From NCBI GenBank assembly GCA_038087875.1, contig CM075992.1, forward strand, positions 436,001 to 500,000: a stretch of DNA of 64,000 nucleotides, written 5' to 3'. The stretch comes from Malacoraja senta (taxonomy: Eukaryota). A program made the translations under genes and the position numbers. Position 1 is the first letter of the stretch. Every line of letters starts with the position of its first letter. The notes under the pieces are model-generated. The model searched no databases, had not been told where the DNA came from, and was given only the letters and a program-made list of their open reading frames with translations. Of this stretch, positions 1,364 to 63,379 are shown one piece after another.

Positions 1364-1483
1364 ACTGGAGAATGGCAGAATAGACTTGATGGGCCGAATG
1401 GCCTAATTCGGCCCCTATGATTAAAACAAATATCCCTGCACTGCCCGGCCTCTTGTAGCCGCTGCTCCCGGTGCCGCTCGGGC

Positions 1484-7308: not shown

Positions 7309-7961
7309 ATTATTGAGTATAATTATACTGCGGCAACAACTGTTTTACACACTTTGACTTGGTTGCTTTTTTAATTTTGGAATTGACATTGATGCGTTAA
7401 CCTCTGGCGGTTATCTGAGCAGGGATAATACATGAGGTCACGGCTGCACTTTGCTGGGCTTTAAACTGAGTCAACCTAGTTTTGACTCCTGTATTGGTCT
7501 GAATTTAACGAAATGAGGTAGGTGTTGATTCATTTAAAGCTTAAAGTTGTCTGTATTTTGCTAATGCCAATGCAAAGGCATATGTTCCACCTGCTTTGTC
7601 TCAGGGCTTGCCAGTGAGAAGTCTGAAGAAGGGTCTTGACCTGAAACGTCCTCCGTTCCTTCTCTCCAGAAATGCTGCTTGTCCCGCTGAGTTCCTCCAG
7701 CATTTGTATGCATATCCCTGCAAGTGAGAGTTGTGCCAAAGCCAAAATGATGACAAAACAGAAACAGTTTCTAAACACAGGCTCCTTTTTAATACTTCTA
7801 TCTAGAGGATGTGTTTGATTTATAACATTGATGGCTCACCTCACTATGCATGCTTGGTCCAAAAAAATGTGTTTGCATGAGAGAGAAAAATAAAACTGAA
7901 GAAATAGCGACAGGCTGCTCTCATGGGGAAACTAGGTTGGCCCAGATAGTTATTTTAGTAA

Positions 7962-8091
7962 TGTGTAGGAAAGAACTGCAGATGCTGGTTTAAATCAAAG
8001 GCAGACACAAAATGCTGGAGTAACTCTGCATCTCTGGAGAGAAGGAATGGGTGACGTTTCGGGTCGAGACCCTTCTTCAGACTGACTTGTA
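7962..8091 (-). mobile_element. Short Penelope-like pLTR-derived element with hammerhead ribozyme core
   Basis: Minus strand 8053-8080 = CTGAAGAAGGGTCTCGACCCGAAACGTC; flanked by direct repeat TATTTTAGTAA (7951-7961 / 8092-8102). Confidence 0.8.
8053..8080 (-). ncRNA. Minimal type I hammerhead ribozyme motif (consensus copy)
   Basis: CUGAAGA-A-[GGGU CUCG ACCC]-GAAA-CG-UC: conserved core, 4-bp stem II and palindromic ACGU minimal stem III. Confidence 0.7.
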
Positions 8092-9356
8092 TATTTTAGT
8101 AAAATATACAAGCTGGGTTTTACAGACTTTGATATCAGGTCACACAGAATGACTTTGACATTAGCTTGGGTGACATTATGGAGAAAAAATAATTGAATAC
8201 ATAAGCATTCGTAGGGTGAGTCATGGGACAGGTGAAATTGTAAATATCAAAAAGTTACAGAGAACCAAGAGAGAACATTACAGGTGACAATTTGCATTTA
8301 TACAGAGCCTATAATGTTACAATGTTTTGAGATGTTAGCAAATAAATTTGATACTAAGCTATGTTAGGAGATATTGAACTATTTGCCCAAAACCAATATT
8401 CTAAGGAGGGTCGTAAAATGGTCGGGAGAGATGAAGAAGTTTATGGAATTCCAGAGCTTGTGGTCAAGGTAGCTGAAGGCACAAAAGACTGCAGATGCTG
8501 GAATCTAGAGCTGTAAACAGTGCTGCAGGGCCTCAGTGGGTCAGGCAGCATCTGTGGAGGGATTGGACGGATGGTATTTTGGGTCGGGACCCCTCTTCAG
8601 ATGGATCCGTCTCCGGAATTTTGAGCTGAAGGTACAATATGGAGATGCAGGAAAGATCAGCGCACAGTGTCGATCACAAAGCAAACAGGAAGAGAAATCT
8701 TACAGTGAAAAGGCTTGGTATATCTGTTCTGATGCAGTGCAAGGGAACAAGAGCTCGTGATGCTTTATTTCTGAGCAAATTAACAGAAGCAATTATCATT
8801 TTAAGAACGTGACAGAAGGAAATTAGTTACAGTCTGTGTGACAACAAGTGCATTAATTTAATGAGTGTAATTGCTCGGAACAGTAGGGTCAGAATTAGGG
8901 AAACAACAAAACAGTCTGTGGGTTCAGGCACCTGCTCACATGTATTATTTTCACCAAATCATAATCAGTCAAGCATTCTTCATTGCTCCCTTTTTATTAT
9001 CCCAAAATAACATATTATGGTTGTGCTGAAAGCAACTTGTGTATTCAGGAGGTGTGATTACTGTTTTTATCCGTTCTGGTGGAAGTGATTGATTGACATT
9101 TTCTAAACTAGGTGCACTAGAGGGTTTGCTTTAACTCTGAATTCCCTTTCTAAAAGCATAGATGGTTGGAGTGTCTGGTAAGTTATCATTATCTCTGTGG
9201 GGCAGGACATCTTTAGTCTATTAAACAACAGGCTGTTGTCCTTCAAACTAATTTGCTTGTACTGAACCTTTTTAACAAGCGGCTCAATTCAAACATTACA
9301 TTGATTATTGTCTTTGAAAGGCTCAGGAAACATTTTGTATGGAAATGGTAGTTATA

Positions 9357-9660
9357 GGCGACAGAATGGCGCAGCGGTAGAGTTGCTGCCTCACAGCGCT
9401 TTTAGCACCAGAGATACGGGTTCAATCCCGACTACGGGTGCTGTCTGCACGGAGTTTGTACGTTCTCCCCGTGACTGCGTGGGTTATCTCCGAGATCATC
9501 CGTTTCCTCCCACATTTCAAAGACGTACAGGTTTGTAAGTTAATTGGTTTACAATTTACCTTGCAATTGGCCCTAGTGTGTGTAGGATAGTGTTAATGTG
9601 CGGGGAGAACGTACAAACTCCGTGCTGCTTTCTGCGCTGTGTCTCAAAGCTAAACTGAAA
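9357..9660 (+). mobile_element. tRNA-derived SINE (HE1/V-SINE-like)
   Basis: A-box-like TGGCGCAGCGG, B-box-like GGTTCAATCCC, V-domain. Confidence 0.85.
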
Positions 9661-13200: not shown

Positions 13201-15245
13201 CATTTTACAGCAAATTAAGGGCTTTTGAAGTTTGGCTCCTAAAGGAACTGTCTTCTGCTTCGCAAGGTTTCACAAGCAAGGAGTGAGAGGCTGGCAACTG
13301 ATGAGGGTTGCCTTGTGGACAAGTCACGGGCTTTGTGATTTTCCGCAGTAACTATTTGCAGGTTGTATATTTCATAAACCAGGATTTAAAATTAAATAAA
13401 TGTAATTATTTCCACTGTCCCCTCGCATCCATTATCCCATTTCATCCTCTGCATCTAATGGGCATCGTTCCTTTAAGATGTACTGTGTATCATTGACAGT
13501 GTGACAAAGCATTCCATGATCTGCCACTAACCCCATTCCCCACTTCATTCAGTGAGAAAACTTCTCAACACCTTGTTAAACTTTGTCAAGATTAAACAAA
13601 AATCTACATTAAATCTATTTTTAATCTCCTTAGTATTAGTCAACTCAGACTTTATTTTTGTCTATTCTTTTCTCAAAGGGTTAAAGCCTATTCACTGTGG
13701 ACTTTGTTTTTGTTGCACTTGCACGATGTTGGTCCAGCATTAGTGATTATTAAATCATTTCATTATTGATTATTGTATATTTATTTGTATGTTTTGTTTT
13801 TATGGGTTGGTTAAACTGCAACAAGTACAAATGTCATTGTTCCAATACTGCTACATGTGACAATTAAATACTATTGACCATTTAACCACCTCCAATTTAG
13901 CTGACAGAACAGATTACTCGCTCTTCATTGCGTTTCCAAAATCCTGTGATTCAGGAAGGCATTTGTCCAATATAAGATTCAGCTCTCCTGCACCAAACCT
14001 CTTATAGATCCTAAGACTTCCATTCTCTTTGCAAACCCCAGTGGAATGACAGAGAATAAAATAGCGTGAATTCAAAACAGATTTTAAAAAGAGAAAGAAA
14101 AATCTTAAAGAAAATAATCAAATTTAATTCCAGAAATCTTTCACTGGATATCTTCACTGGATTAAGGCAGAGATAGATAGATTCTTGATTAGTACAGGTG
14201 ACGGGTTATGGGGAGAAGGCAGGAAAATGGGGTTAGGAGGGAGAGATAGATTAGCCATGAATGAATGGCGTAGTAGTCTTGATGGGCTAAATAGCGTAGT
14301 AGTCTTGATGGCCGAATAGCCTAATTCTGCTCCGAAAACATGAACTTACAACAACATGTTTAAATTGTATTGAGTGCAATCATTGACACACCTTTATGGT
14401 GCAAAGCCCCACCTTTATTTTCTAGGCCATTGTAATTAATAATTAAGGTGCAAACATTGCAGCCTGAGCTGCCCCCTTTATTGTACAGAATCCACTCACC
14501 GATTCATGGATGAAAAAATTCCCCCCTTCCCACGGGCCACTGGGCAGTGTACACATTGGTGAGTGACAGTAAAGAAAACATATCAGCAGTGAAATTTGAG
14601 TTGTTGACTTTAATACCTCCCATCATTATTAAACGCAAATTATTTTATATTGTGCAGTAGAAATATCAGGAACCAAGCCCCAAAGTATTTAGTGTTCAGA
14701 CAGGAATATACTTGACTATGAAATCTTGAATAGTAAATTTTAATTTAATTGGAGTATCAACTCAGTCGGAGAGTTTCATTATTTAACACGTATCATGCAA
14801 ATAATTCCTCTGAGAAAATGTAAGTGTTGCATATCGATGAAATCGCCAGATGGGAGAAGCATTTCTGAGCATTATACAATTGAGACCATTCAGTCAAGAA
14901 AATCTCTTTAAGCCAGAGTAGGAAGATTCAAAAATCAATGCAATGACATTTAATTAAAATTTCATGTAATTAAATACATGGGAAGAGAAGGCATTGCAGT
15001 GTAACAGTGCTGAACTGTGTCTGAGGATTATTGAATGGGTATGCTTTTCAATCAGAGCACAGAAAGAGGCAATTGAACCTGCAAGCCTCTGCTAGCTCTT
15101 TGACTGATTATCTCCGTTTGCCTGAATAAATCCTTCCCCACTCACAATTATACTTCAGCAAAATAAGATGCAAGGAGATATTTGCCCAATTTACTAGACA
15201 ATCATCTCCAAACCAAGGGCCATCATCCCTTCATCTTCATGAAGT

Positions 15246-15273
15246 CTGAAGAAGGGTCTCAACCCGAAACGTC
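15246..15273 (+). ncRNA. Minimal hammerhead ribozyme motif in a truncated PLE-derived element
   Basis: CTGAAGAAGGGTCTCAACCCGAAACGTC, core intact. Confidence 0.6.
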
Positions 15274-15719
15274 AATCATTTCTTCTCTCCTGAGATGTTG
15301 CCTGTACCTAGGGTTGCCAACTGTCCCGTATTAGCCGGGACATTCCGTATATTGGCCTCCACAGCTTTCTGTGGGAATGAATTCCACAGATTCACCACCC
15401 TCTGACTAAATAGATAGATAGATAGATAGATTCCTTTATTGTCATTCAGACCTTTCGCTCTGAACGAAATTATGTTGCCCGCAGTCATACACAGAACCAA
15501 TAATAACAAAACATACAATAAACACAAATTAAATTAATTCTTTAATTAAAAATTAAAATGTTTAATTAAACACAAATTAAAGAATCTTTAAACTCTGCTT
15601 TGCGGCGGACTGGAGGATGTTTGACTGGCCACCACTACAGGCTGTGAACCTGGAGTAGATCTCTTGGAAGGACGTGCCAGGACGCCATTCCAATTCAAGT
15701 GCAGGGACTATCTCTCTCT

Positions 15720-15840
15720 CTCTTTTGTGACGTCACACTCACCGCCCGCCGACGTCAACGAACCGCACCCTGCGTGACGTCACGAAGGGAAGGGAAGTGA
15801 CGTGTCCTCCGGAGACGCGGAAAGGCCAAGATGGCGCCGA
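15720..15840 (+). promoter_or_regulatory. STXBP2 CpG-island promoter with CRE cluster, ETS-CRE composite and YY1 motif
   Basis: TGACGTCA at 15728-15735 and 15775-15782; GACGTCA at 15751-15757; GGAAGTGACGT at 15793-15803; CAAGATGGCG at 15827-15836 overlapping the ATG. Confidence 0.8.
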
Positions 15841-15867
15841 CAGGGCTGAAGGCGGTGGTCGGGGAAA
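15831..15867 (+). CDS. STXBP2: STXBP2 exon 1
   Basis: [12 protein letters not shown](K); donor A|GTAAGT. Confidence 0.95.
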
Positions 15868-18800
15868 GTAAGTTGCCGTCGTCCGGCCTTAGTTTACCGC
15901 CGCTGTTGTTGTCCGAGCTCTCAGCGGGGCGCGGCTTCCTCTGCGGAGGGTGGCGAGGGCGGGCAGCGCAGCGCAGCGCAGCACCGGGTCTCGGGGATGT
16001 CGGAGCTCCGGGCCGGGCCGGGCCGGTCGTTGTGTCGGAAGGAACTGCAGATGGCTGCTGGTTGACACCGAAGATAAGACACAAAGTGCTGGAGTAACTC
16101 GGTGGGACAGGCAGCATCTCTGGAGAGAAGGAATGGGTGATGTTTCGGGACGAGACCCATCTCCAGACTTGTTGACAAGGGGAGTCCCGCCCCTTCAGCA
16201 GCCCGATTACTCCGTCAGCTCACTAGCATTTCGTGTCTATCAGTGATATCACCACATTAATTTAGCCTCACTGATATGTAACATGACTTCACACAATACC
16301 TGGAATAAAGGGAAACAGAGGTAGACAAAAGTGCTGGAGAAACTCAGCGGGTACAGCAGCAGCATCTATGGAGCGAAGGAAATAGGCAACGTTTCGGGCC
16401 GAAACGCTTCTATCAGGCCTATAAAGGGAAACAAGCTATTTACTGGTTTAGTTTAGAGATACAGCATGGAAACAGGCCTGTGGCCCACCCAGTCCGTGCC
16501 CTCCAGCAATCACCCCGCATGTGCTAACGCTATTCTACATGCACTCGGGACAATTCACAATGTTAGCAAGTCAATTAACCTACAACCCTGTATGCTTTTG
16601 GAGTGTGGGAGGAAACCGGAGCACCAGGAGAAAACCCACACAGGTCGCGGGAGGACCGTGCAAACTCCGTACAGATAGCATCCCCACAGACAGGATAGAA
16701 CCTTGGTCTCTGGCGCTGTGAGGCAGCAACTCTGCCGCTGTGCCACCGTGCTGCCTGTGTTTGGGCTGATGGATGTAGCAGGTCCTGGGCTTTACACAGC
16801 TGGCCTAGGGCATGCACCCATTGCCACCGCTCCGCCGCTTCTCTGCTGCTTATATGCTTGTTTATATGCACCAGACTTGGGGGGTAACAAAAGTGTCTTA
16901 ATAAAAAAGGGGGAAGGAGTCGGATGGTCCTGTGGTTGCTCCTGATAAAATCATATAAACTTATCGGCTCTGAACTCAATGTTTCCTGTTTTGTGAAAGT
17001 TGTGAAATGCAGTGCCGTTAAATGACACTGCCTTAAAAAGGAACACATACTGTTCTTTGAAATAGAAAGATCCCTTTGGGAGGGGGGTGTGAATCACAGT
17101 GGAAGAAAAAATTACCTTCCCCCAATGAGCATTATTCCCAATTAGTTAGTGAAATGTTCATATCGAGGTTCTTCAGTGGGGTTCAGTGCAGTTGGAGGCG
17201 TCTCATATCAGCCACCCCTTTGTTCATCAGCTTTAATTTTCATTTAGAAATTCGAGCCTAAGATTTCTTAATTAAAATATAACTTGTCTGTTTAAAAATA
17301 AACATTGATAAAATTATTTGGGTGTAATCTATGGAAGGGACGATTGAATTGTTTTGGCTATTACAGAAAAAGTAGAGTTATCCAATGTCATGAGCATCTT
17401 GACTGCGGTGCATCTTGGACAATACAGCTCACCCCCTCCATGACACACTGGTCAACCTGAGGAGTACGAAGGTAGATAAAAAGGCTGGAGAAACTCAGCG
17501 GGTGTGGCAGCATCTATGGAGCGAAGGAAATAGGCAACGTTTCAGCCCGAAATGTTGCCTATTTCCTTCGCTCCATAGATACTGCTGCACCCGCTGAGTT
17601 TCTCCAGCATTTTTAATCTAACTTCGATTTTCCAGCATCTGCAGTTCCTTCTTAAACAACCTGAGGAGTACCTTCAGCAACAGACTGCAGTACTGAACAC
17701 CACAGGGGATCCTTCTTCCCTGTGGCTATCAAACAGTACATCTCCTCCCCCTTCTGTTGTGGAGTAAGATTGGCTCCCCTCCCTTCAGACTTCTGAGTAT
17801 GTGGTTAATGGAAGGTTCAACATATTGTTGAAGAGAAGCATTCTCAAAATTTGTAGGCAGTAGAAGGGACAAGAGATGTGTATGTGAGCTTCAGATGAAT
17901 TGTCAGTGACATCTGAAAACTGTATTGTCATGTTGTTACTGGAGGGGGGATTGTTGGAATTGCAGATAGATGTGAAATGGAATGTACATTCACTGAAGGT
18001 GTGGGATGATATAGTGTCCAAGTGTGGCCAGGTTTTTCTGGGCAGAATAATGACAGGTTTCAATGCCTTATGGTTCAGTTTGTTATAGTTGGTCTTAAAT
18101 TCCCAATCTCTTCCGGTCTGATGCAGTACTGTACCCACACAGCGAAAAGGGTACTGTAGATGTAAACAATCTGTTCAATCAGGATAGATTGTAACCAGGT
18201 ATCCATTAATAATCCCCAAAAAGGTTCTCCCCTTTGCTATGCCTATGTAGCCTAACTGTCATTATGCTGCCCATTTCTCTCCACTACTTTGCATTTGGCA
18301 ACATTAAACCGTTTAATTTCTCAGCTGACCTTCCCAACTTTGCAAAGTTTCTGCACCCGATCAATTGGTGAATTCCGGTTCCTTACACGGTCTGCTTATA
18401 ACCCAACAAGCTATGCTTAACTAGTTGCATCAAATTCTGGGTAATTGTTATCTATAAAAGTTTCATTTTATTTGCTTGTGTTCTTTCCACCACAGATAAT
18501 ACTAACTCACCAACACTGCACTCATTTGATTTTCCTTCCCATATGATCTATGACTGGATGTTTCACAATACCCTGTAACATTTTATGCAAAAACATTGCA
18601 AGACACCCAAAGTACTGTAAAAAGCTTTGAAGTATCCTTACGTCATTTGAGATTAATTGCACTGAGAGCCATTTTGTGGAACCCTTGGTACATTCATTGC
18701 ACTGAGAGCCATTTTGTGGAACCCTTGGAGCACTGAGCCCCAAGGCGAGATAGTGTTACCGCTGACCCCAGATCTCCTGTGACTGCCAATTTTCCATCAG

Positions 18801-21800
18801 TCCATTCTTCATGCAAAACCTTTCCTTGGACAAAGGACTTGCAGTGCAATTGGAGTGCATTGAAATAAGCTTGCCTGTCTTGCATAGAAGAATTCCACAA
18901 TGTGTTCATCCTGAGTATTCCCAAGAATGAAGACAAACTGGATAACTGTTTGTAAAATCACAGTATTGATAATTCTCAATTGTTTAGTATATCAATATGG
19001 CAAAATACCAATGAAACTGAAGTGTTTTAATTTCATGTGGGTTAGCTGTATCATTCTACTGAATTCACATTGCCCTGGGCAGTCGCCACAAATCGTTCAC
19101 CCGTCACCAATAATATTTACTCCCTTAATTTTTCTGGAGCCTTAGCACAATCCCATTTAATGCTTTAGCAGTGTGTCGATATCTTGTGTCTGTTTCATTA
19201 ACATCATTGAAATTTCAGTGGCTACATTGATGTCAATTGGAAGGTAGCTAAAGAGACAATTTGTGGTAAATATCCCACAGATATGCTTTGGGTGATTATT
19301 TTGTTCTAAAACAACTCTGCATAAGTTGTTCCCGATGTTCCTATAATGTTCCCCATGTTGGGGGAGTCCAGAACCAGTTTAAGAATAAGGGGTAGGCCAT
19401 TTAGGACTGAGATGAGGAAAAACATTTTCACACAGAGAGTTGTGAATCTATGGAATTCTCTGCCACAGAAGGCAGTGGAGGCCGATTCACTGGATGTTTT
19501 CAAGAAAGAGTTAGATATAAGCTCTTGGGGCTAATGGAATCAAGGGATATGGGGAGAAAGCAGGAACAGGGTACTGATTTTGGATGATCAGCCATGATCA
19601 TATTGAATGGTGGTGTTGGCTGGAAGGGCTGAATGACCTACTCCTGCTCCTATTTCTATGTTTCTATAAGGATTTGGCTATCGTGAGTGCTGCCTATATA
19701 CTCGGTGACTCTGAGTTGGTCATTTTGCAATCACTCCTTTCCCATAACTCTACTATTAAACTAGGAGTGAACTTAATTTTGTTTTGGTTCATTAATGACG
19801 TGGTTATGTTCTGTCTTCACAAAGTACCAAACCGTGTACGCCATTCTTCTCACCTTTAGCAGAACTAGGAAACTTCTTTTAGTTAATTTGTTCCTTTTTC
19901 TGAAACAACAGTAAATTCCAATTTGAAATTGGTTTCCTTGCTATTTTAAATGAACACTTAAAATGGTCTCTTAAATAAACATCTTGCAACGTCACTTAAA
20001 ATACTTTGAGTTTGTAATGTTTTTGACAGTTCTTATCACATGACTTTAATTTTAAGAGCTTCCTGGAAATACTTTTAAAGCTCTCGCCATTAGTGATATC
20101 ATTAAGATCTTGGTAGCAATTGTGTGAAACTCATTGAATTGTTGCTGGAAGTGCAAAAAACACGAAGTATGACATTTGTAGTCTTAAGTGTTTGTGCAGA
20201 ACATTTACATGATAGCATTTTGCAGATGTTTGATGTTTCAGTCATGGCTGATCTATCTTTCCCTCCTAACCCCATTCTCCTGTCTTCTCCCCATAACCTC
20301 TGACACCCGTACTAATCAAGAATCTATCTATCTCTGCCTTAAAAATATCTATTGACTTGTCTCCGACAGCCTTCTGTGGCAATTCATTCCACAGACTCAC
20401 CACCCTCTGACTAAAGAAAATTAGACATAGAAACATATAGGTGCAGGAGTAGGCCATTCGGCCCGTCGAGCCAGCTCCGCCATTAAGTATGATCATCTAA
20501 AATCAGTCCCCGTTCCTGCTTTTTCCCTATATACCTTGATTCCGTTAGCCCTAAGAGCTAAACAATTCCTCCTCATCTCCATCCTTAAGGAACATGCTTT
20601 AATTCTGAGGCTATGTCCTCTGGTCCTAGACCCTCCACTAGTGATTGCATCAGGAGTCAGATAGCAGTGAGGGGAGAAGCTGTTCTTGGATCTGGACATA
20701 AGTTTTCAAACTCCTGCATTTTCTCTCAAAAGGTCGGGGAGAAAAGGAAAAATCCAAGGGAACAGGCATCTTTAGCAATACTTCTAGCCTTTCTGATACA
20801 GTGGAAGCTGAAAATGGACTGGATATTGAATCTGTGATGGACTGGGCTGTATTTGGAGGGACGGTGGGGGGGAATAAACTGCAGGCGAGAAAAGATCAGA
20901 ACAAATCGGGGCCGGCAACAGGTCACTCAGGAAGGGTGGAGCCAGCTGATATAAACCAACATCTGCAGTTGCGTTGTATACAAGAATACGTTGTCGGGCT
21001 ACTGGGGAATAAGGGGTGGGGAGGGAATAGTGCTGGTGGGATTGCTCTGCTAGGAGCTGGTGTGAACATAATAATTGAATAGCGGTTTCTATGTATATAT
21101 GTTAAGTATATATCTGGAGTTTAAATAAACTGCTTTCATTTATTGGGCTGGACATTTTAAGTCATGAATTGTAAAAAGCGTTTTAAAGTGAAACGTGAAG
21201 GATAAAGAACAACATTGAAGAATGGTCTACAAGGTCTCGACCTGAAAACGTCACACATTCCTTCTCTCCGGAGATGCTGCCTGTCCCTCTGAGTCACTCC
21301 AACATTTTGTGTCTATCTTCGGTTTAAACCAACATCTGCAGTTCCTTCCCACACATTGAAGAATGTTTGCTGTTGTGAATCATTTTGTTCAAAGCATGTT
21401 TTATAATAAATAGTTTTGATAAATTGTCAGCAATCTAGAAAATATCTGCTATTTATCTTCCATGGGTGCTGTCTGACCTGACTGGTGTTGGTGTTTCCGG
21501 CATTTTCTGTTTTTATTTCAGATTTCCAGCATCTGCAGCATTTCTTATTTTTCAGTAGCCTATTTTATGTTGGTTGAATTCAAGTTATTTTATGTGAGTA
21601 ATGGTAAGCTGAGGAAGAGGGTGTTGTCAAAATTGTGTGTGTTTGTTTCTGGCAATGTGCATGTTTGGTGAGTACGAACATAGCCTTATGTCTGTGGGTG
21701 TGACTATCTTTAATTGGACTGTACTGAACTTTACCTTGCACTAAATGTTATTCCCATTATCATGTATCTGTACACTGTAAATGGCTCGATTGTAATCATG

Positions 21801-24800
21801 TACTTTCTGCTGACTGGTTAGGACACAACAAAACACTTTTCACTGTACCTCGGGACAAGTGACGATAAACTAATTGAGCATATTCAAACTTGCTGGAGGT
21901 GTCATAAGTCATATGAGCAGAAATAGGCCTTTCAGCCCATCGAGTCTACACCGCCATTCAATCATGACTTTCTCTCTCAACCCCATTCTCCTGCCTTCTC
22001 CCCATAACCTTTGACACTTACTAATCAAAAACCTGTCAATCTCCGTCTGAAAAATACCCAATGATGGCACCCACAGCCGTCTGTGGCAATTAATTCCACA
22101 GATTCACCAACCTCTGACTAAACAATTAAATTCTTTGGCAACTGTTTACATATTTTGCATTTATTGGGGTGTTGTCTCTTGAACTGCTGCATTACATAGT
22201 ATCTTGCCCTTTAAATTGGAGACTTTCTGTTGCTTGTGTGTTTTAGATGCTGCTATTGATTTCCCTGTTTAAATACCCCAAGGATTTCCCTCTTACTGGG
22301 TAACAGATGCTTCAAGTGGTTGAGCAAAGAGAGGTTTGCTGGAAACAATCAGAAATCTGCGCTCTGGGCAGTTGTTGCTTCCGCAAAAACAAGAATGTTC
22401 AGCATTGTGAGCATTCCTGCCTCTCCCTGTCACGGTAATTTTTAAAGGGTGTATTGTAAACGAAGGAATGTTTAAAGATCTTGATTGTGATAACTGAGCG
22501 ATGAGGAATGATAAAGATGCACACATTCGGGTTTGGAAATTAGATAGTGGTGACACCTGGTAGGTATTTTAAAATGGAGGCGTTGCTCAGTAGGTCAAGA
22601 AGCATGGCAGTGGAGGGATGAATGAAATTTAGTGCAAGTTAGCACAGGTGCTGGGGACTTTTGATTGTATTTTGGTAAGTCAAATCAGGGCAGGGCTTGT
22701 ACAATATTGGTGGGACCCTGGCGATTGATGTGGGGCAGTGAGATGTGTAGAAACGGACATATAGCGCTGGAGTAATTCAGCAGGTCAGGTAGCATCCCTG
22801 GGGAACAAGTATAGGTGCGAGAGTCCTCCCAGCGGCCTCTCGCCGCTGGGATGACTCTCCCAGCGGCGAGACTCTCCCAGGGGGCGCTGACCTGTGTGCG
22901 GCTGCCCAGCCAGCAGCTGTCTGTCCTTTCACCTTTATTTTTTATTTTAGTCAGTAAAGTGTTTTGTTTTGGAGGTCTAGACTTTTTTGTGTGGGGGGGG
23001 GGGAAGGGGGGAAACTACCTTTCAGGGTCCCTACCTGGCCAGAGAGGCAGCTTTTCCTCCGGGCTGCAGCTTCGACCCGTCCTCGCGGCCTACCAGCGGG
23101 CGTGGAGCGGCGGTTCCTGTCGGGGACCGCCCAGAACCTCGGCTTCGGCGGCGGCACAGCGCTGGAGCGCTATCGCGGAGCGGGCGATGCCTTGCCCGGG
23201 TCGCCGCGCTGGAGCTCCGGTGAGCTGAGGATCGCTGGAGAAAACATCACAGAGCTGCGGGGACTGTGGAGCGACCAGCTGCGGGCGGCGGCGCTGAACT
23301 TTACACCGGGAGCCTGGGATCTCTAGATGAGAGCGGCAGTTGTGGAGCTCCAACCGGCACGGCCTTGTTAGCTTCGGAAGCCGCGGCCCCCAGTGCGGAA
23401 GCGGCCGTTCCAGGGTTCCCAGCCGCTGGGAGGACTCTCCCGACGCCGGAGCAACATCACCCGGCGAGAACGGCCTGGAACATCGGGCCTCCGTAGAGGC
23501 AACTGTGGAGGCCTCAATGGGCCCGACTATGGGTGAACTGGGGTTGGGGACTGGACTTTGTGCCTTCCCTCATGGTGGGAGTCATTGTGGGGGGATGTTC
23601 AGTGTTAAGACTATCTTGGTGTTGTGTCTGTATTCTCCTTATTCTCTTTTTTGTGTGCTGCATAATGGCAAAAAGCATTTCACTTCACTACACCCGGGTG
23701 TATGTGAATGTGACTAATAAAAATATCTTGAATCTTGATCTTGAATCTTGCTGCTTGACCTGCTGAGATACTCTAGCACTTTGTGTCCTGTTGTGTATGA
23801 GTTGGGCTAAGGGGCCGGTTTCCATGCTGTGCGACTAGTCTCCAATGGAAGGCCTTCTCTATCTTTCAGTCTGAAGAAGGGTTCTGACCCGAAACATCAC
23901 CTATTCCTTTTCTCCAGAGATGTTGCCTGACCCACTGAGTTACTCCAACATTTTGTCCATCTTTAGACTCTAATGTAATTTGATCTCCAATTTGAGTATC
24001 TTTCACAGCTATTTGTGACTGGTTTATACTACAGCTAGCAAAAGCCCTTCAACCTCCTCCATGTGTACAAAACAGATTTTAATGTGCACAAGCACAATTT
24101 TTGTAAAATAATTGGTTTGCCTCTTGCTGATTCTGTTTAAGAATATTTCCTCTTTTAGGCGAATACTCAGGGCCTGTATCACAATTTCTTGAAGGTTATT
24201 TGCAAATTGAAATTCTGTATTTAAATCTAATTGAGTAGATTTGTAAGTTTTTATAATGTTAAGAATATAACACAGCCCCAACTCCCCATGATTGTTTTGA
24301 CATTGCCCGTCTCCTCATTGCAAAAATAGAAATTTGCCCATTACTTCCGTTTTTGGCAACTTAACTGGATCTTTTTTGTTTCTCTCATAGAAATTTTAAC
24401 TGGAGTCATCAAGAATTTGAAGAAGGACGGCGAATGGAAGGTTTGTGACTGCAGTTGGAATGGAGACGGTGTGAACGCTTTGGCGTGGGGGCGGATCATT
24501 AGGGGCTGCCTTTGGCCATTGGGTTTTTTCATTCATTCATTTGCACCTCTCCAGTGTAAATACTGTAGAATTTGGAAGTGGGACAACAAAACTCTGATAT
24601 TGGGTTATGGTGGAGTTTAATGACAGTGAGTTAACCAAAATTGATCAATTCAATATTGAGCACAAAAACCTTCAGATTTTGATGTCTACGTAATTTCAGG
24701 CCTGTCCCCCATGCACACACCAGTCTCCTTCCTTCTCAGGATGCTTTGGCTACATTTACACATTTATTAAAAAAATTGTGAAGTTTCAATTTGTGCTTGG

Positions 24801-51162: not shown

Positions 51163-51168
51163 AATAAA
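51163..51168 (+). terminator. Candidate proximal STXBP2 polyadenylation signal
   Basis: AATAAA about 255 nt after the stop. Confidence 0.4.
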
Positions 51169-54100: not shown

Positions 54101-55734
54101 CCAGATCTGGGTATCCTTCAGCAATTTACAGGAGCTTCCCGTTCCTTCAGAAGGTGGTTGTGAGGGGATTGTTGTGACTAAAGGGTATTCTCACACCTGC
54201 AGTCAGATCGCATGCCTTGAACTGGAAGGAGCAATTTGATTCAATGTTCTGCCCTTGGACTCCACCGGGTAATGTGCCTATAGTCAACAATCCAATGGAT
54301 TTAATTGCAGTATGTACATGATTTAACTGGATGGCAATAATCAATGTAAATATTTCTTCTTTAGTGGTAATAGCCAGAATATTTTTTGTATGTACGTGCA
54401 TTTAACAATGACAGTGCTACTCGCGTGGTGTGTGTTGTGTATAATCTGCAAAAGATATAATAAACTTATCCTTTTGTTATTTAATTGAATTCTGTTTCCG
54501 AAATGAAAACCTAGCATTTTTATACCATGACCTTGGGACAAGCTGAACAATCTTTTGAACATGGATAGGTGACATTTCAGGTAGGGATCCATCTACAGAC
54601 TCTGGTAAAGCCATCACGTGTCCATGTTCTCCATGGCTGCTGTCTGACCCAATGAGTTACTCCAACACTGTCCTTTTCTGTAAATCAGAGCCCATGGTTC
54701 CTTGTTGATTCATGTACTCCAGGTCTTCCTTCATTCATTCATTAGCCATTTCATTCTCAAATGTGAATCAAATCGAACAATTAATAAGCAACCTCCTATT
54801 CTCATCTTTATTTTTGAGGAGGTTTGTGATTGAATCAGCTGTTGATGGTTGGCCTTTGAACAGTTGTGATGGTTCAATATAGTTTAGTTTATTGTCACGT
54901 GTACCGAGGTACAGTGGAAAACATTGTTGTTGCGTGCTAACCAGTCAGCAGAAAGACAATACATGATTACAATCGAGCCACTAATTTTGTGCAATCAGAT
55001 GGCTTCTCTCTTGGTCTTTGACCGTTTTCCATTTAATTTCACTTTAATCAATGTCGTCTTTGAATTGTTCCTAGTTACATTAGTCTATCTTGGAGCTTCC
55101 ATGTACAATTCTGTTTTTAAGCCAAGTCTCTAAAGCAAGCAGTTATCTGAAATATACTTTTCGAATGCAGGGAATTGCTTGATAAAACAGTGGAGTTACA
55201 GCAAATAAAACGGTCCTTCATGCACCCTTGTCTATGTTGACCATCCAGTTGTAACCAGAAAATTAGAGTGACAGAGTTGGAGGACATGTGGGTTCCCGCA
55301 GTGAGGAGCAGAGCGAGATTTGTACATGTACTGACTTGAGATTGCCCTTGCCACTCTTTTAATTGTAATGGGGTCTTCAGATCCAATAGAAAGATGAAAC
55401 CTTGGGGTGACAACACTGGAACTCTCCAACTCGAGCAGCATCTGTGCAAGCAAAGGGTCGGATGTCATTTCTGGTTGAGCACTGCATCAGGACCAAGAGT
55501 GTGGATGGCAGATTGTCAGAAGAAAGAGATGAGGGATAGGGGTGAGACGCTGCTAGGCTAAGAGATGAGGGATAGGGGTGAGACATGCTGCTAGGCTATG
55601 AGTGGAATTGGGTGAGGAGGAGGAAGTACAGAGAGACTGGATGTGAAAAATGAAACAATCAAAAGATAGGACCCTTGTGGAGAGACTATCAATACTTCCC
55701 AATGCCTGACTGCAGACAGAACAACCAAAGGTAG

Positions 55735-55920
55735 CCACAAAAAGCTGGAGTAACTCAACAGGACAGGCAGCATCTCTGGAGAGAAGGAATGGGTGACGTT
55801 TCGGGTCGAGCCCCTTCTTCAGACTGGTTATGGATAAGGGAAACTAGAGATATAGACGATGATGTAGAGAGATAAAGAACAATGAAAGATATGCAAAAAA
55901 CTAACAATGATAAAGGAAAC
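55735..55920 (-). mobile_element. PLE pLTR-derived element with intact hammerhead core (55795-55822) and extended upstream segment
   Basis: Minus strand CTGAAGAAGGGGCTCGACCCGAAACGTC; 55830-55920 matches the reverse complement of 32295-32390. Confidence 0.75.
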
Positions 55921-56466
55921 ATGCTGACATCAAGTGAAATCTGACCATCTCTTCAATAGTTTGTATTGCACTAATGTGGACTTTTCAGGAAAGTTATTTA
56001 AACCTTGTCATTGCCGTGATCAGATCCAACGTTGGAATGGATTCATTGAGAGGATGATCTAATTATTTTTAAACAGAAATCTGTCACACACAAAAATGAT
56101 CAATAAACCAACAGTAGACAAAAAATGCTGGAGAAACTCAGCGGGTGAAGCAGCATCTATGGAGAGAAGGAATAGGCGACGTTTCGGGTCTCGACCCAAA
56201 ACATCACCTACACCTTCTCTCCATCGATGCTGCCTCACCCGCTGAGTTTCTCCAGCATTTTTGTCTACCTTCGATTTTTCCAGCATCTGCAGTTCTTTCT
56301 TACATAAACCAACGGTGGTATGGAGGGGAAGAAAACTGACTTGTGCTGATTTACTGGTAAAACAATGACCTGGTGCTATGTCACAATGTGAGCAATTGCA
56401 GACTCTTTATTCAATGTCAAAAGCTCTGGAGATGGTGCATGTGTTTTAACAAAGTGGGGAAAGAAA

Positions 56467-56524
56467 ATGAAATTAGTTTATATTTGTATACTTATTTGGA
56501 TCGTGCTTGGGTGTTATTGTCAAG
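56467..56524 (+). CDS. Protease-like gene exon 1 (signal peptide)
   Basis: MKLVYICILIWIVLGCYCQ(G); donor AAG|GTAAGT; phase 1 matches exon 2. Confidence 0.8.
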
Positions 56525-59500
56525 GTAAGTATGGATACTTGTTTCAGACATTTAGCAGTTGTAGAGCAGATTCAGGAGTACAAAAATGTTGTTCGACAAC
56601 AACTTTTGCTGTCTGTCTTTGAGGTATACTGTTGTAACCTGAAGCAAAAAATATTCCTTTGGTATCAAGTCTCTGTTTAATTGCGAGAGCTGATTCACCT
56701 GTAAACCATCTGCCCTACTTAAAGGAGGACACAATTAGAATAAAACTCGAGTATGCTTATTACTTGGTTTGCTGTAAGATTGAAAGGGATCACTTTTCAG
56801 AAAATACTTTCATAGTAATTTCCTCAGTGGAGGAGTATTCCTTGGGTTGATCTGCCTAAAATCATCCTTGTCCCGTTTCATAAGTATTAAACATCAAAGT
56901 GGAGCCTGATCCAATTCATGTTCACAGTGGTGTTTGTGTGGAGTTTGCACGTTCTTGCTGTCATTACATGGGTTCCCTCTGGGTGCTAGGTTTCCATAGA
57001 TACATAGACAATGGGTGCAGGGGTAGGCCATTCGTCCCTTCGAGCCAGCACCGCCATTCAATGTGGTCGTGGCTGATCCTACATACTAAACACATGCAAA
57101 TTTGTAGGTTAATTGGCCTCTGTAAAATTTGCTCCTAGTGTGTAGGGAGTGGGTGCGAAAGTGCGAGGATTGGCAGAAGGGCCTGTTTCCATGTTATACC
57201 TCTAAACTAAAGTAGATGGCCCTAATGTTTGTACTCCCGTCTTTCGCATCCCTTCCCATCAGCAGTTAATCCAACCACACACACACCCTAGATACCTGAA
57301 ACGTCACCCATTCCTTCTCTCCAGAGATGCTGCCTGTCCCGCTGAGTTACTCCAGCTTTTTGTGTCTACAGTTTAAGCCAGCATCTGCAATTCCTTCCTA
57401 CATCCTACGTACCCTTACTTTGAAACCACTTCACAAACTATAGAGCACTTAATGAGAATTGTCAAAATCCTATTGGTATACTGTCTTGAGATTATCCAAC
57501 GCAGATGTTCACAAGCTTACACAGTAGGTGTAAAGAGGACACTACACCCACGAGCACAGGATTGAAACCTTTGTATCTTTGCGCACTTTTACAGGATGTG
57601 GTGTACCAACAGTGAGATATAAAAACAACTTTGCCAGAGAGATACGCATTGGAGAGTTCCCCTGGCAGGTCCATCTACAACTGAAGTGGAAATACCTGTG
57701 TGGTGGGGACATACTCAGCCGGTGGTGGGTTGTGACCACAGCGCACTGCATCTTCATGTAGTAAGTATCATGTGATTTTGGAGCAGCCATAATTTGTGGA
57801 AAATATCAATATTGTTAACTCGTCAGTTTGAAGAAGGGTCCTGACCCGAAACATCACCTATCCATGTTCTCTTGAGATGCTACCTGACCCGCTGAGTTAC
57901 TCCAGCACTCTGTGAAACGTCACCTATCCATGTTCTCCACAGATGCTGCCTGACCCGCTGAGTTACTCCAGCACTCTGAAACGTCACCTATCCATGTTCT
58001 CTTGAGATGCTACCTGACCCGCTGAGTTACTCCAGCACTCTGTGAAACGTCACCTATCCATGTTCTCCACAGATGCTACCTGACCCGCTGAGTTACTCCA
58101 GCATTTAGTGCCTTTCCTTGTTAACCTATCAATTCTAACTTCGCAGACCTGCATTTATTAACTGTTTAAGAAAGAACTGCAGATGCTGGAAAAATCGAAG
58201 GTTAGACAAAAATGCTGGAGGAACTCAGCGAGTGAGGCAGCATCTATGGAGCGAAGGAATAGGTGACGTTACGAGAACCGTAACGTCACCTATTCCTTCG
58301 CTTCATAGATGCTGCCTCACCCGCCGAGATTCTCCAGCATTTTTGTCTACCTAGCATTTATTAACTGATGACCAGTCAGATGGTTGTGAATCTGTGGAAT
58401 TCATTGCCACAGAAGGCTGTGGAGGCCAAGTCAATGGATATTTTTAAGGCAGGGATAGATAGATTCTTGATTAGTACGGGTGTCAGGGTTTTTTTATGAA
58501 CCTGATCACTCTGGTGTGCCAGTACAGCCGACAGCTACCAGTGCACAAGGTGGAGCAACAGACCACCATCATGCACGCTCCTCTTCAGTCAATGTTCATA
58601 GTTTGATCAAAAGAGACTGAAGATGTGGGAATCTTGAGCAAGACACAATCCTGGAGGCCCTCAGCGGGTCAGGCAGCATCTGTGGAGGAAATAGGAAATG
58701 GACAGGCAATGTGTCTGGTCGGGACCCTTCGTCAGACTGGGTTGAAATGTCATCTGTCCACTCCCTCTGCAGATGTTGCCTGACCCACTGAGTTCCACCA
58801 GCTCTATGTGAAACATATTGATTGTGAAATTATTAAATTCATTTAATTTCACCTTTCCATTAGATATACACCATGGAAACATGCCCTTCAGCCCACCTTG
58901 TTTGTCCATGCCAATTAAGATGCCCCATCTATGCTAGTCCTACTTATCCTCATTTGACCCCTTATCCTGATCCTTTTCTATCCATGTACCATGATTTGTA
59001 GAAATTAGGAACTACAGATGCTGGTTAATAAACAAAAGGACACTGGAGTAACTCAGTGGGTCAGGCAACATTTCTGGGGAACAAGGATTGGTGACTTTTT
59101 GGGTTGAGATACTTCATCAAATTCCTATTTTTAGTTTGAAGATAGACATAAAGCTGGAGTAACTCAGTGGGTCTGACAGCATCTCTGGAGAAAAGGAATA
59201 GGCGACGTTTCGGGTCCCTTCTTCAGACTCCTATTTTTAGTTTATTCCTTTTTATTACTGCAAACACAATTAAATTACTTTTGTGCTGCTTTATTCAACA
59301 GTTCTGAAGCTCTCTTTGAAAGTCTCGTCATTGTCACTGGCACACTCAAGCTGGAAGGCTTGCGGATTATTTATGGAGTTCACAAGGTCATCTTGCACGA
59401 ATACTTTATTTTTGAACTGTTTGGGTTTAAAATCCCAGACAACGACATTGCTCTCGTCATGGTGAAGGAACCAATCGTATTCAACAAACTTGTATCGCCC

Positions 59501-62155
59501 ATATGCTTCCCTGATGACCACTACCTTGACATGAGCACCCTGGAGAACTGTTGGGTTACTGGATGGCAGATGTTAAGTCTCGGTAATTATTGTGACGTTT
59601 CTTTCAATATTGTGTGCGTTCGTTTCCCTCCGATGAACCCCATGTACTGTACACCTTGAGTTTAGCCCCCACCCCCTCACACCAACCTCCCCTCTCCCAT
59701 CAGGCCAAAGGTATAAAAGTGAGAAAATGCACACCTCCAGATTCAGGGACAGTTTCTTCCCAGCTGTTATCAGGCAACTGAACCATCCTACCACAACTAG
59801 AGAGCAGTCCTGAACTACTATCTACCTCATTGGTGACCCTCGGACTATCCTTGATCAGACTTTGCTGACATAACCCTGCACTGAACGTTATTCCCTTATC
59901 ATGTATCTATACACTGTGAATGGCTCGATTATCTTTCCGCTGACTGGATTGCATGCAACAAAAGATTTTCACCGCACCCCAGTACACGTGACAATAAACT
60001 GTAGGACCTCTCAGAAGATAAAGGGGAAAACTTTGCTGGTTTACAGTAAAACAAGAGTGCTCTTCTTCCCCTGATAACTTGAAGACAACCCAGACTGTGA
60101 CGTCTGCACCCTCTCCAATACCTCCACTTCCTTCTTGTAATGGGAAGATGAGAACTGCACGCAATACTCTAAATGCAGTCTGACCAAACTGCTGTAAAAC
60201 TAACACACGACTTGCTGATTCTTGTACTCTTTGCCTCGGCCGAGGAAGGCAGGCATACCATATGCATTCTTCACCACTCTGCCTACTTGTGTTGCCACTA
60301 TCAAGGGGTTATGGACGAGGACCCCAAGATCCCACTCTATATCAGTGCTGTTCATGGTCTTGCCATTAACTCTACACTTTCCCCTTCCGCTTGTCCAAAG
60401 TGCAACACCTTTTGATGCTATTTGCTTTGTCTGTGTAGCTGGAAGTCCCATCTCTCCCATCTACCAGACTGTGAAACAGACTGTCAGCCATGAGAAGCTG
60501 GAGGTCTGTGAGAAGTTCTACCCTGAAAACCTGAGGGAAAGTGTGATTTGTGTGACCAACTTGGACAAGCAGCAGTCTCTCTGCATGGTAATGTACTTCA
60601 ATGCAATCCATTCCATCAAACAAGGTCAAAAGTTAGTGGTGCAGCGGTAGAGTTGCTGCCTTACAGCGTCAGAGACCCATGTTCGAAATCTGACTACGGG
60701 CGCTGTCTGTACGGAGTTTGTACGTTCTCCCCGTGACCTGCGTGGGTTTTCTCCCACACTCCAAAGACGTACAGGTTTGTAGGTTAATTGGCTTTGGTAA
60801 AAAATTGTGAATTGTCCCTAGTTCCTCCCCTGTGGGGCAGAGAGAGGTCAGAACCACTCCTCGCCCCAACCTCCCCTCTCCCCTCAGAACCACTCGCTTG
60901 CTGTATCCCCCCGCGTACCCTGTACCCATGTGTTAGTGAGCGGCAATCGCTGGTCGGCACGGACTCAGTGGGCCGAAGCGCCTGTATCCCTAAACTAAAC
61001 TAACAGAGGCCACCTGCCCCACAGTTGTAGTTGAGGGGTTCTGCCACTGGAGGGAGCGTTGAGAACCTATCATGACACTACGTAGAATTGGCATCATTGA
61101 TTATCAATTTAGTGTCTCTAAAACAAAGTAAACGATTGTTGGAACCTGAAACGTCGCCTGTCTATTCCCTCCACATATGATGCCTGACCCGCTGGATTCC
61201 GCCAGCACTTTGTGTTTTGGCTCACCATTCCAGCCTCTGCAACTCATTCTTGTCTGTAATGGATATACTGAACAAGTCAGGCAGTATCCATGAAGACAAA
61301 CTGAGTTAACAGATATTGAGCATTATTATAGAATTATTCATGCATCCTACCTCACTGAAGAAGTTAGCCATACAGCATGGAAACCAGCCCTATTGGCCCA
61401 ACATCCATGCCCACCTAGATGCCCCTCTGTGCTAGTCTCGTTTGCCCACATTTGGACTATATACTTCCTAAATCTTTCTTATCCATGTACCTGTCCAAAT
61501 ACAGTTTTAAATGTTGGTAACATACCTGCCTTAACTAACTCCACCAGCAGCTCATTCCATATACCCACCTGTAATAAACTGTAAATGCACTGAATGGCTC
61601 GATTGTAATCATGTATTGTCTTTCCGCTGACTGGTTAGCACGCAACAAAAGCTAATCACTGTACTTTGGTACACATGACAGTAAACTTAACTGAACTGAT
61701 CCTGGTCTCTTTTTTCCCAGGGAGGTTATGGTGCCCCACTCGAGTGTCAGGACAAGAGGACTAAAATGTGGGTGGTGGCCGGGGCAGCAAGCCACTGCCC
61801 CCCGTCCTGTAACCACACGGCCCTCTTCACCAGCTACATCCACTATGTGGACTGGGTGGAACGTGTCACCATCTCGGCAGGGCGCCCCTTCATTCCCTAT
61901 GGACTTCCTCCCAAACCCACCCTGCCCTGCCACCAAATCCAGCACCCCAAACCCACCCTGCCCAGCCACAAACTCCAGCACCCAGTCGAATTGAACCCGC
62001 GGCAGAAGCCAAAGAGAAATCGAGAAGCCAGGAGTCAGTGGAGGGGTCGACACCACAAGGTCACTTTTGAGAGCAACTCATCGAATGCAGAGCGGAAGCC
62101 ATGGCAAGTCCTTAGTACAGCTGTGTGCCTCGTACAACTTGCACTGCTCACCTGA
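56467..62155 (+). CDS. Trypsin-family (S1) serine protease homolog, catalytically inactive, PRSS54/PRSS55-like, 5 exons, 362 aa, signal peptide and putative GPI signal
   Basis: Exons 56467-56524, 57595-57760, 59302-59582, 60439-60587 and 61721-62155 total 1089 nt in one open frame, all GT-AG. Motifs GEFPWQV, LCGG, TAHC, DNDIAL, PICF and CWVTGW are present; CMGGYGAP replaces CxGDSGGP. Confidence 0.9.
57595..57760 (+). CDS. Protease-like gene exon 2 (His57 region)
   Basis: CGVPTVRYKNNFAREIRIGEFPWQVHLQLKWKYLCGGDILSRWWVVTTAHCIFM; donor TA|GTAAGT. Confidence 0.92.
57848..58103 (+). repeat. Tandem array of four 64-66 bp PLE-derived units (A-B-A-B)
   Basis: Units start at 57848, 57914, 57978 and 58044. 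Confidence 0.9.
59302..59582 (+). CDS. Protease-like gene exon 3 (Asp102 region)
   Basis: ...VHKVILHE...DNDIALVMVKEPIVFNKLVSPICFP...ENCWVTGW. Confidence 0.93.
59700..60000 (+). mobile_element. Rex1/Babar-like LINE 3' end
   Basis: Encodes ...HTSRFRDSFFPAVIRQLN, followed by the shared 3' UTR. Confidence 0.7.
60439..60587 (+). CDS. Protease-like gene exon 4
   Basis: GSPISPIYQTVKQTVSHEKLEVCEKFYPENLRESVICVTNLDKQQSLCM; phases 1 and 0 fit the neighbouring exons. Confidence 0.88.
60633..61003 (+). mobile_element. tRNA-derived SINE (HE1/V-SINE-like) with internal insertion
   Basis: SINE consensus 5' and 3' parts. Confidence 0.8.
61721..62155 (+). CDS. Protease-like gene exon 5 (terminal)
   Basis: GGYGAPLECQDKRTKMWVVAG...YVDWVERVTISAGRPF...VLSTAVCLVQLALLT*. 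Confidence 0.92.
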   Translation, partial: GGYGAPLECQDKRTKMWVVAGAASHCPPSCNHTALFTSYIHYVDWVERVTISAGRPFIPYGLPPKPTLPCHQIQHPKPTLPSHKLQHPVELNPRQKPKRNREARSQWRGRHHKVTFESNSSNAERKPWQVLSTAVCLVQLALLT

Positions 62156-62737
62156 CGGTTGGCATTAAGCACAGGTTGTCGAACTGAGAATAATTATTGT
62201 GCAACGGACAATCCTATTACCTCGAGTTCAACAGGGCGTGATATTGAATTGATTTTGTTGATCCTGCTCTTTTGTGGGCTAGGATCAGATGGAAGGACTT
62301 GGGAGGCAGTCGGAACATTACGAAAAGCACGGTGGCTGCGGGAAAAGGAGCTGTTCTCAGAGCTGGCATCGACTCAATGGGCCGAATGGCGGCACCCTAT
62401 GTTGGAAAGAAAGAACAAGTTAATATAACATTTGCTATAACAGTTTGCAATTGGGATTTTTATTTTCCTTTATGTTCCCATCAGCACATCAAGATAATTT
62501 CTTGCACCAGTTCTTAATATAAAGATATTTTGCAGATCCAGGAAACTCAATGCCAAATGCATGGCTTTGTATTAATTATCCTGGGCAAGTAAGTCATGTG
62601 TGTGTTGTGGACAGCACTCGCGTGGTGCCTGTGGTGGGGCTATATCACTCGAGCTGACATTCTTACTCTACATGCCTATTAATGCATAAAAGCAAGATAA
62701 ATATATAATGTACAATAATTTATTTTTTTATATAGTA

Positions 62738-62936
62738 TTCTCTGCCTCAGAGGGCGGTGGAGGCCGGTTCTCTGGATACTTTCAAGAGAGAGCTAGATAG
62801 GCTCTTAAAGATAGCGGAGTTAGGGGATATGGGGAGAAGGCAGGAACGGGGTACTGATTGGGGATGATCAGCCATGATCACATTGAATGGCGGTGCTGGC
62901 TCGAAGGGCCGAATGGCTTACTCCTATTGTCTATTG
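62738..62936 (+). mobile_element. CR1 LINE 3' fragment
   Basis: Matches the CR1 3' end/UTR of 50520-50730. Confidence 0.85.
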
Positions 62937-63379
62937 CCTAAGCGACTTTGAGTCCTGAAAAGCGCTATATAAATAAAATCTATTATTATTATTATTAATA
63001 CATCAATAACAATAATACTAGGTAATAATAGTGCTAAACCCAAGTCTATAGTGCAACCAAAGACACTGTCCATAGAAGATCATAGTTGCTGAGGTTAGTG
63101 TTGTGTAGTGTTCAAGAGCCTAATGATTGTTGGGAAGAAGCTGTTCTTGAACCAGGAATGAGTAGGTTAACCTACGATGGTTTTGAAGCAATAACATTAT
63201 TGGGACATAAAAATGTAATTTGTGTCACAAGAGCAGTTTGAGTCTGAAGCAGGGTCTCGACCCGAAACGTCACCCATTCCTTCTCTCCAGAGATGCTGCC
63301 TGTCCCGCTGAGTTACTCCAGCATTTCGTGTCTATCTGCCCCTTATGGCAGCAACAGAAGCAGCTGAACGCCAGCGGGT

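Follow-up and report, generated by a model that had tools for sequence, protein, structure and literature searches.

Minimal hammerhead ribozymes have been described by Cervera and de la Pena (2014, PMC4209133) in the pseudo-long terminal repeats (pseudo-LTRs) of metazoan Penelope-like elements. Among these elements, members of the Neptune clade have one open reading frame (ORF), in which a reverse transcriptase (RT) is followed by a C-terminal GIY-YIG nuclease, together with a cysteine linker, pseudo-LTRs, inverted 5' copies and an optional tail of 30-40 nucleotides (nt), as reported in PMC8557442. PAc, the Poseidon of Anolis carolinensis, has two 3' ends downstream of the hammerhead and an uncleaved RNA template (Frangieh et al. 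2024, PMC11167929). Non-LTR retrozymes are tandem units of 150-450 base pairs (bp) with canonical type I hammerheads and abundant circular RNA (PMC7229834; bioRxiv 10.64898/2026.07.22.740005). Neither what the hammerhead does nor how pseudo-LTRs arise has been settled (PMC8557442, PMC11167929). We describe here a hammerhead-bearing repeat found in a 64,000-nt stretch of Malacoraja senta DNA (assembly GCA_038087875.1, contig CM075992.1, positions 436,001 to 500,000 of the forward strand; hereafter the window). The repeat forms the pseudo-LTR plus the tail of a Penelope-like element of 4 kb with RT and GIY-YIG, likely a Neptune, and its copies of 100-135 nt are likely to be run-off complementary DNAs (cDNAs), primed inside the element RNA and stopped at its 5' end.

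The M. senta motif shares with the hammerheads of PMC4209133 the CUGANGA box plus one extra base, the G10.1-C11.1 pair, GAAA and a palindromic ACGU replacing helix III; in both cases the motif is present in the two repeats of the element, and most copies are dispersed and single. Helices I and II are of 2 and 4 bp here, whereas helix I is mostly of 3-5 bp, sometimes of 2, in the described motifs. At least 18,728 exact copies are found here, against about 4,000 coelacanth and about 9,000 Xenopus motifs. No cartilaginous fish is named in the searchable part of the supplement of PMC4209133. All the Neptune features listed above (PMC8557442) are found in the M. senta element. Two 3' ends downstream of the hammerhead and, by inference, an uncleaved template are shared with PAc, whose ORF begins within helix II and contains the priming position. 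In contrast, the ATG follows C3 (the opening base of the hammerhead core, numbered 0; cleavage falls between +27 and +28) by about 165 nt here, and the two main 3' ends fall in the 5' untranslated region (UTR). No fixed 5' edge seems to be reported for PAc in the parts of PMC11167929 that were available. Non-LTR retrozymes also carry type I hammerheads, and a pseudo-LTR origin is proposed for them (PMC7229834; bioRxiv 10.64898/2026.07.22.740005), but the copies described here are dispersed single insertions with target-site duplications.

Hammerhead motifs in the window and in the genome

Both strands of the window were searched with a minimal-hammerhead descriptor (CUGANGA, one further base allowed, a stem II of at least 3 bp, GAAA, two bases, UH). 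Exactly six sites were returned, identical in coordinates and strand to the six cores reported in the first-pass annotation, while 20 shuffled windows gave 2 matches in total. Nine other sites, reported there as decayed cores, are each a copy of the same repeat, and the copies recognizable by their tail are about 50 in the window, exceeding that list. The core, the extra base after A9, the G10.1-C11.1 pair and the palindrome are those of the minimal type I hammerhead known from Penelope-like elements, the class to which the sites had been assigned. An Rfam scan detected no hammerhead family up to an E value of 10, and returned only hairpin look-alikes under gathering scores. Core, ACGU palindrome, 4-bp helix II and 2-bp helix I are found all together only at 8053-8080 on the minus strand. 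The palindrome has been lost through CpG decay in the cores at 23871 and 37524, the core at 7623 has no helix I pair and that at 15246 has one, and helix II is reduced to 3 bp in the core at 55795.

The 28-mer was matched exactly 9,309 and 9,419 times on the two strands of the 1.94-Gb assembly, 18,728 times in all, and its reversed version was never found, in keeping with the massive amplification that had been proposed. Forty 10-kb stretches taken at round coordinates contained 109 tail-anchored copies, covering 13,059 of 400,000 bases (3.3%), and the copy number is estimated, by rough extrapolation, at half a million.

The parent element

The GIY-YIG C-terminus can be translated upstream of the core in several of the first 30 genomic matches. 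Two loci, L031 and L032, have in common 1.9 kb upstream of the core, 80% identical and including RT motifs. In Pfam searches natural fragments matched RVT_1 (E 6.5e-06, 26.4 bits, below the cut-off of 29.6) and GIY-YIG (E 8.2e-05, 23.3 bits, above the cut-off of 22.6); two further fragments had no Pfam match. The layout of the element can be read directly in the whole unit at L063:3088-7097, which includes a repeat with the motif, a 5' UTR, an ORF of about 3.5 kb, a 3' UTR, and a second repeat with the motif. The terminal repeats span 3088-3294 and 6846-7097, and both contain the hammerhead. The single ORF, read across broken frames, encodes RT and then the nuclease. The linker preceding the nuclease in L013 and L031 is of the C-x4-C-x2-C type, and its three cysteines are invariant or nearly so in alignment A1. 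It fits CX2-5CxxC, known as a mark of both Neptune and Nematis (PMC8557442). Partial-tandem junctions and inverted 5' partners, typical of pseudo-LTRs, were found, and so was the optional 30-40-nt tail, as 3' ends peak near +94 and +130. With four membership features present in its sequence, the element is an EN+ (endonuclease-bearing) Penelope-like element. The clade is likely to be Neptune, assigned from the linker, which is common to Nematis, and not from an RT tree. The closest named proteins are encoded by skates (77-84% identity), followed by those of other rays and sharks, pointing to a skate as the likely host.

The repeat had been regarded as a non-autonomous family. This view is not supported, because motif and tail flank the RT plus GIY-YIG element, and the subfamilies checked (A, B and C) are each joined to the nuclease ORF in longer copies; for the B type, 4 of 13 3' UTR matches extend to this ORF. 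Also the interpretation as a miniature inverted-repeat transposable element (MITE) was rejected, as the palindromes are head-to-head pairs of copies oriented in one direction.

Pieces of the nuclease are fused to host domains in some annotated skate, ray and shark proteins (P0001, P0002, P0006, P0009), which probably are exonised or mis-annotated versions of the element. At L050, L054, L059 and L062, in several small contigs, a truncated element and an inverted repeat lie within flanks that are 99% identical, and are part of a larger amplified unit.

Edges of the short copies

Copies were anchored on the tail, rather than on the core, in 664 kb of DNA (the window and 60 other stretches). The copies found were 242; 231 could be aligned, and 225 had sufficient flanking sequence. 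The 5' edge falls at -7..0 in 79 of the 225 (9.9 per nt), and at -30..-8 in only 15 (0.65 per nt). Of the others, 22 extend further upstream, 73 start at +1..+24, 4 at +25..31 and 32 at +32..60. In other words, 116 copies reach C3, and 79 of them end within 7 nt. When the window and partnered copies are left out, the edge is at -7..0 in 42 of 103. The 3' ends are found at +85..97 in 97 copies and at +119..131 in 76, with 13 in between; the two sites are about 37 nt apart, and the tail references themselves stop near +131. Among 152 full-tail ends, only near-full-length elements continue into the 5' UTR.

The DNA abutting the 79 edge copies is unique in 50 cases; an inverted partner is found in 23, a tandem partner in 5, and a pyrimidine-rich tract in 1. 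Target-site duplications, which like the edges were read directly from the copies, are of at least 8 nt in 15 of 121 copies with unique flanks, against 0.5% of random pairings. They were found in 16 of 30 copies cut at -6. The rate is lower (7 of 30) for copies cut at -3, and some of these duplications do not abut the edge. Edges and duplications indicate that the short copies are separate insertions having a real 5' edge, and the duplications support the spread by retrotransposition that had been suggested. At L203 a short copy has been inserted into the ORF start of another copy, generating a 16-nt duplication, an instance of self-targeting. No targeting of microsatellites was evident in the flanks looked at, of which no count was made.

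How the short copies may be formed

The edge is likely to correspond to the start of the element RNA. Among 30 loci picked because they include 5' UTR and ORF start, the first base is at -7..+4 in 8, further upstream in 9 and at +27..+64 in 9, and 4 lack a forward motif; the near-full-length element L064 begins at about +1. Twenty of these loci are dimers, in which the ORF start, ending between +209 and +657, is joined to a second unit. The latter starts at -4..+3 in 7 of the 20, in several cases after a short run of As (L132 and L133 are duplicates). The edge sequence, TCAGT, is initiator-like. A similar site has been reported in a rotifer pseudo-LTR (PMC3846280). An extra G before the edge is expected if the cap is copied. 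In the first 100 listed matches per position, counted by eye, G precedes the edge in 64 cases at -6 (42 expected, p 8e-6), in 38 at -3 (27 expected, p 0.008) and in 25 at position 0 (30 expected). Contigs of four sequencing runs, whose type was guessed and from which start, strand and level cannot be read, have loose ends at -6..-1, and in the best run at least 4 joints with a single G before -6 or -3 occur among the 12 rows listed, with 258 more beyond the listing; both observations are weak hints only.

We accordingly favour a model in which transcription would start at the initiator-like A located 3 or 6 nt before C3. The encoded protein would nick the target DNA and prime at about +94 or about +131, by analogy with the anole element (PMC11167929); the two clusters of 3' ends match the two RT starts and the optional tail described in that study. 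After priming at the 5' repeat, the RNA would end after some 100-135 nt, and the cDNA, once joined to the target, would result in a solo copy. Head-to-head pairs would be formed by cDNAs folding back, and dimers and partial tandems by cDNAs jumping to another position of the RNA. Uncleaved RNA would be the template. The hammerhead would be kept in active lineages, in which cleavage is probably weak, protein-aided or carried out as dimer, and would be dead in most genomic copies.

Several observations weigh against this reconstruction. No intact ORF was found scoring 150 RT matches out of 15,669 candidates, the longest open frame being of 593 amino acids (aa), and the junction between tail and ORF start was found for subfamily A only. 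With the extra G at -6 a palindrome becomes complete (39 of the 64 cases are TG), and the end-to-end joining of cDNAs can yield this G; one perfect head-to-head case is present among the -6 copies, and in the non-palindromic -6 cases the extra G is found in 25 of 44 (p 0.03). The enrichment of A at -3 (51 of 100) is as high as that of G. The edge is smeared over about 8 nt, blurred by microhomology, and coincides both with a short inverted repeat and with an AG that is splice-acceptor-like and follows a pyrimidine tract. Helix I has 2 bp only, and the hammerhead is not the minimum-energy fold predicted. The start of the RNA at the edge, finally, is likely as judged from DNA copies alone.

In a bolder reading, which we regard as unlikely, the RNA would start 3-6 nt before the core, and the cut made by the downstream hammerhead would leave about 30 identical nt at both RNA ends. 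RT would prime internally near the 5' end, run off, re-anneal at the cut 3' end and go on to copy the ORF. Solo copies, fold-backs and A-linked dimers would then be failed transfers of this strong-stop type, similar to that of retroviruses. If true, the hammerhead would have a function and pseudo-LTRs an explanation. Against it, ribozyme mutants left insertion in vitro unchanged, and no RNA-seq reads ending at the site are reported, according to the sections of PMC11167929 consulted.

The short unit could alternatively be a non-autonomous element that propagates itself, made of solo pseudo-LTRs that are transcribed from a promoter of their own, lying inside the unit, and that the Penelope-like protein mobilises in trans. 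Short copies far exceed those bearing the ORF, since 22 only of 225 extend more than 30 nt upstream; the unit contains the presumed start and both priming sites; no tail-to-ORF junction was found for the B type, which is abundant; and an array of 66-nt tail units found at several loci denotes that some derived copies were re-mobilised. Yet the A, B and C tails have each been found joined to the nuclease ORF, copies continuing into the ORF start have the same 5' edge, and no subfamily made of short copies only emerged from an alignment of 120 copies, from which no tree was built. The balance makes self-propagation rather improbable.

The copies might otherwise be ordinary 5'-truncated insertions derived from the 3' repeat, the edge being a hotspot of stalling or processing caused by the inverted repeat, RNA structure or the splice acceptor. 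CAG follows a pyrimidine tract 1 nt before C3 in all subfamilies, an intron ends at helix I in Drosophila virilis (PMC4209133), 23 of the 79 edges at -7..0 have an inverted partner, and severe 5' truncation is usual in Penelope-like elements (PMC8557442). Against this, the AG itself is included in the edge, and none of 94 edge copies showed upstream a 5' UTR attached to the acceptor-like AG by splicing or back-splicing (other donors were not searched). Duplications abut the edge, with no upstream exon in between, and L064 and the copies including the ORF start begin at the same position. We therefore give little credit to a hotspot of this kind.

Copying as retrozymes, with tandem units self-cleaving as dimers and circularising, is extremely improbable: the palindrome would permit dimers, two hammerheads 200-650 nt apart were found in some loci, an array starting exactly after the cleavage site exists at L143, and retrozymes have been proposed to originate from pseudo-LTRs (bioRxiv 10.64898/2026.07.22.740005), but dimer breakpoints vary from one locus to the next, the 62 cores in the 664 kb include no more than 5 pairs lying on one strand less than 1 kb apart and no head-to-tail core-bearing arrays, helix I is of 2 bp and not of the canonical 6, copies span the cleavage site with no excess starting there, and the L143 units lack the core. 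The label retrozyme-like originally given to these dispersed copies is thus not supported.

Decay and folding of the ribozyme

In 120 copies spanning the core (121 had been selected), 8.6% of the non-CpG core cells deviate from the commonest letter of the subfamily, against 8.3% in the tail. Genomic copies thus decay neutrally, as can be seen directly. Core and helix II are kept in 41 of the 120, and the palindrome as well in 30. The 11 core positions are the same in all subfamilies, except that G12 has undergone CpG decay in the oldest one; changes are confined to loop 2, H17 and wobble pairs, and the tail differs at about 14 of 50 positions. The comparison of core and flanks proposed in the first-pass annotation has therefore a double outcome: single copies lose the core as fast as the tail, and the commonest letters of the subfamilies preserve it.

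In relatives found in metagenome contigs the nuclease match is followed, at a distance of 144-209 nt, by the same core, associated with different helices, in 18 of the 62 loci having sufficient flank (80 were fetched); no core was found in these on the reverse strand or after shuffling. In 5 local and 9 metagenome sequences pairing holds in 94% of the stem cells and, of 7 pairs, 5 have changes in both partners, figures which correspond to some 3-4 independent lineages and to a structure drawn from the same sequences. Within this genome helix changes affect one partner of a pair, and helix I is mismatched at its third pair. A competing hairpin (-6 to -10 kcal/mol) is predicted to be more stable than the hammerhead (-3 to -4 kcal/mol). 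The weakness of the predicted fold is consistent with the low activity reported in PMC4209133 and the protein dependence reported in PMC11167929. The tail shows no significant fold in five natural copies (z +0.6 to -1.9).

There is no accumulation of copy starts at the cleavage site, as 506 are found at +28, 226 at +26 and 557 at +30. Among 100 listed +28 matches, examined by eye, 33 are slippage-like deletions and about 13 fold-back-like junctions, and about half of those at +30 are single-base deletions. Without slippage and fold-back cases, counts at +28, +26 and +30 are about 270, 226 and 280. The array at L143 (G000:C4:32315047-32318160) consists of 61-nt tandem units, whose first base is exactly the one following the cleavage site. 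It is located about 380-700 nt upstream of an ORF-start match, on the opposite strand, and a matching joint was found in run X19.

Copies in the window and the host gene

The only fully intact core of the window belongs to a short copy (7962-8084, minus strand) which has the 5' edge 4 nt before C3, a long tail, and an 11-nt target-site duplication. Duplications flank three other short copies, at 59138-59229 (minus; edge at -3, deletion in helix II; 15 nt), 21233-21355 (plus; edge at +9; 13 nt) and 16319-16416 (minus; younger A2 subfamily; 13 nt). Two plus-strand copies precede the host gene described below. The one at 7618-7705 has an intact core (7623-7650) and unpaired helix I; the one at 15244-15308, about 560 nt upstream of the start codon, has a shortened tail (core 15246-15273). 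Within the gene, the palindrome is decayed in the intronic sense copy at 23856-23963 (core 23871-23898), as well as in a head-to-head pair at 37458-37653 (plus), where an inverted arm is fused to a full copy (core 37524-37551), and in a second sense copy (37720-37805, plus) found 196 nt downstream of 37524. The inverted arm of the pair begins at the base after the cleavage site, and creates a perfect helix I of about 60 bp; fold-back copies of this type with an intact palindrome may perhaps be the best natural cleavers, judging from the pairing. Longer copies include about 175 nt of the element 3' UTR and a broken core at 32222-32521 (plus), and about 106 nt of 3' UTR and a core (55795-55822) with a 3-bp helix II at 55731-55924 (minus). 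At 57816-58116 (plus) a copy is followed by tandem tail units of 64-66 nt without the first half of the core. The same array is found at L161:560-1030, L091 and L117, so the derived unit was re-mobilised. A fragment coding for Penelope-like RT, 76% identical to the full-length copy in L063, lies at 30536-30645 (minus).

The host gene, of the Munc18/STXBP type, extends on the plus strand from 15831, where the start codon likely is, to 46338, in the most downstream exon identified. Its first exon, with the codon at 15831, was recognised by its resemblance to the Munc18 N-terminus. Sec1-family exons were identified at 38471-38593 and 46171-46338 (plus). The gene had been named STXBP2. Strand and gene type hold, but the scores (55.5 bits for STXBP1 and 51.2 for STXBP2, and 84.7 and 84.1 bits, respectively) do not separate the two, and the second of these exons aligns to STXBP2 without gaps. 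Of the sense copies in the gene 11 are listed, in addition to that at 37720, and none combines core and palindrome. Ten antisense copies are listed in the gene, and there is no orientation bias among the copies within it. An effect on the host pre-mRNA is unlikely from the sequence of these copies. At L141:1540-1555 the ORF start codon is overlapped by a strong splice-donor-like site, and another site, acceptor-like, immediately precedes the core; sense copies with such sites could be exonised.

Other features were noticed in the window. A CR1/L2-like long interspersed nuclear element at 47367-50643 (plus) has a 917-aa open frame with endonuclease and RT motifs, recognised by eye. An inverted partial copy, 97-98% identical, is located at 1-1402 (minus); the high identity denotes a young family. 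Frames containing serine-protease-like words, also noticed by eye, at 59177-59659 and 60219-60650 (plus) suggest exons of a second gene downstream. A 21-nt minisatellite, repeated at least 13 times, is found at 1883-2279, beside a GC-rich stretch of the minus strand that is likely a first exon.

Significance

The motif class is already published, and is expected in such elements. A chondrichthyan family is listed in the supplementary tables of bioRxiv 10.64898/2026.07.22.740005, which could affect how new the present one is. The literature covered, from which most subscription journals and Repbase were absent, yielded no paper describing this family in cartilaginous fishes or a strong-stop model. 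The family may already be in Repbase. In terms of annotation, this major repeat belongs under Penelope-like elements, and not under MITEs. Its value resides in the scale, as about half a million copies record where reverse transcription began and stopped in vivo, and the fixed 5' edge found just before the core makes a transcript-start or a strong-stop model testable.

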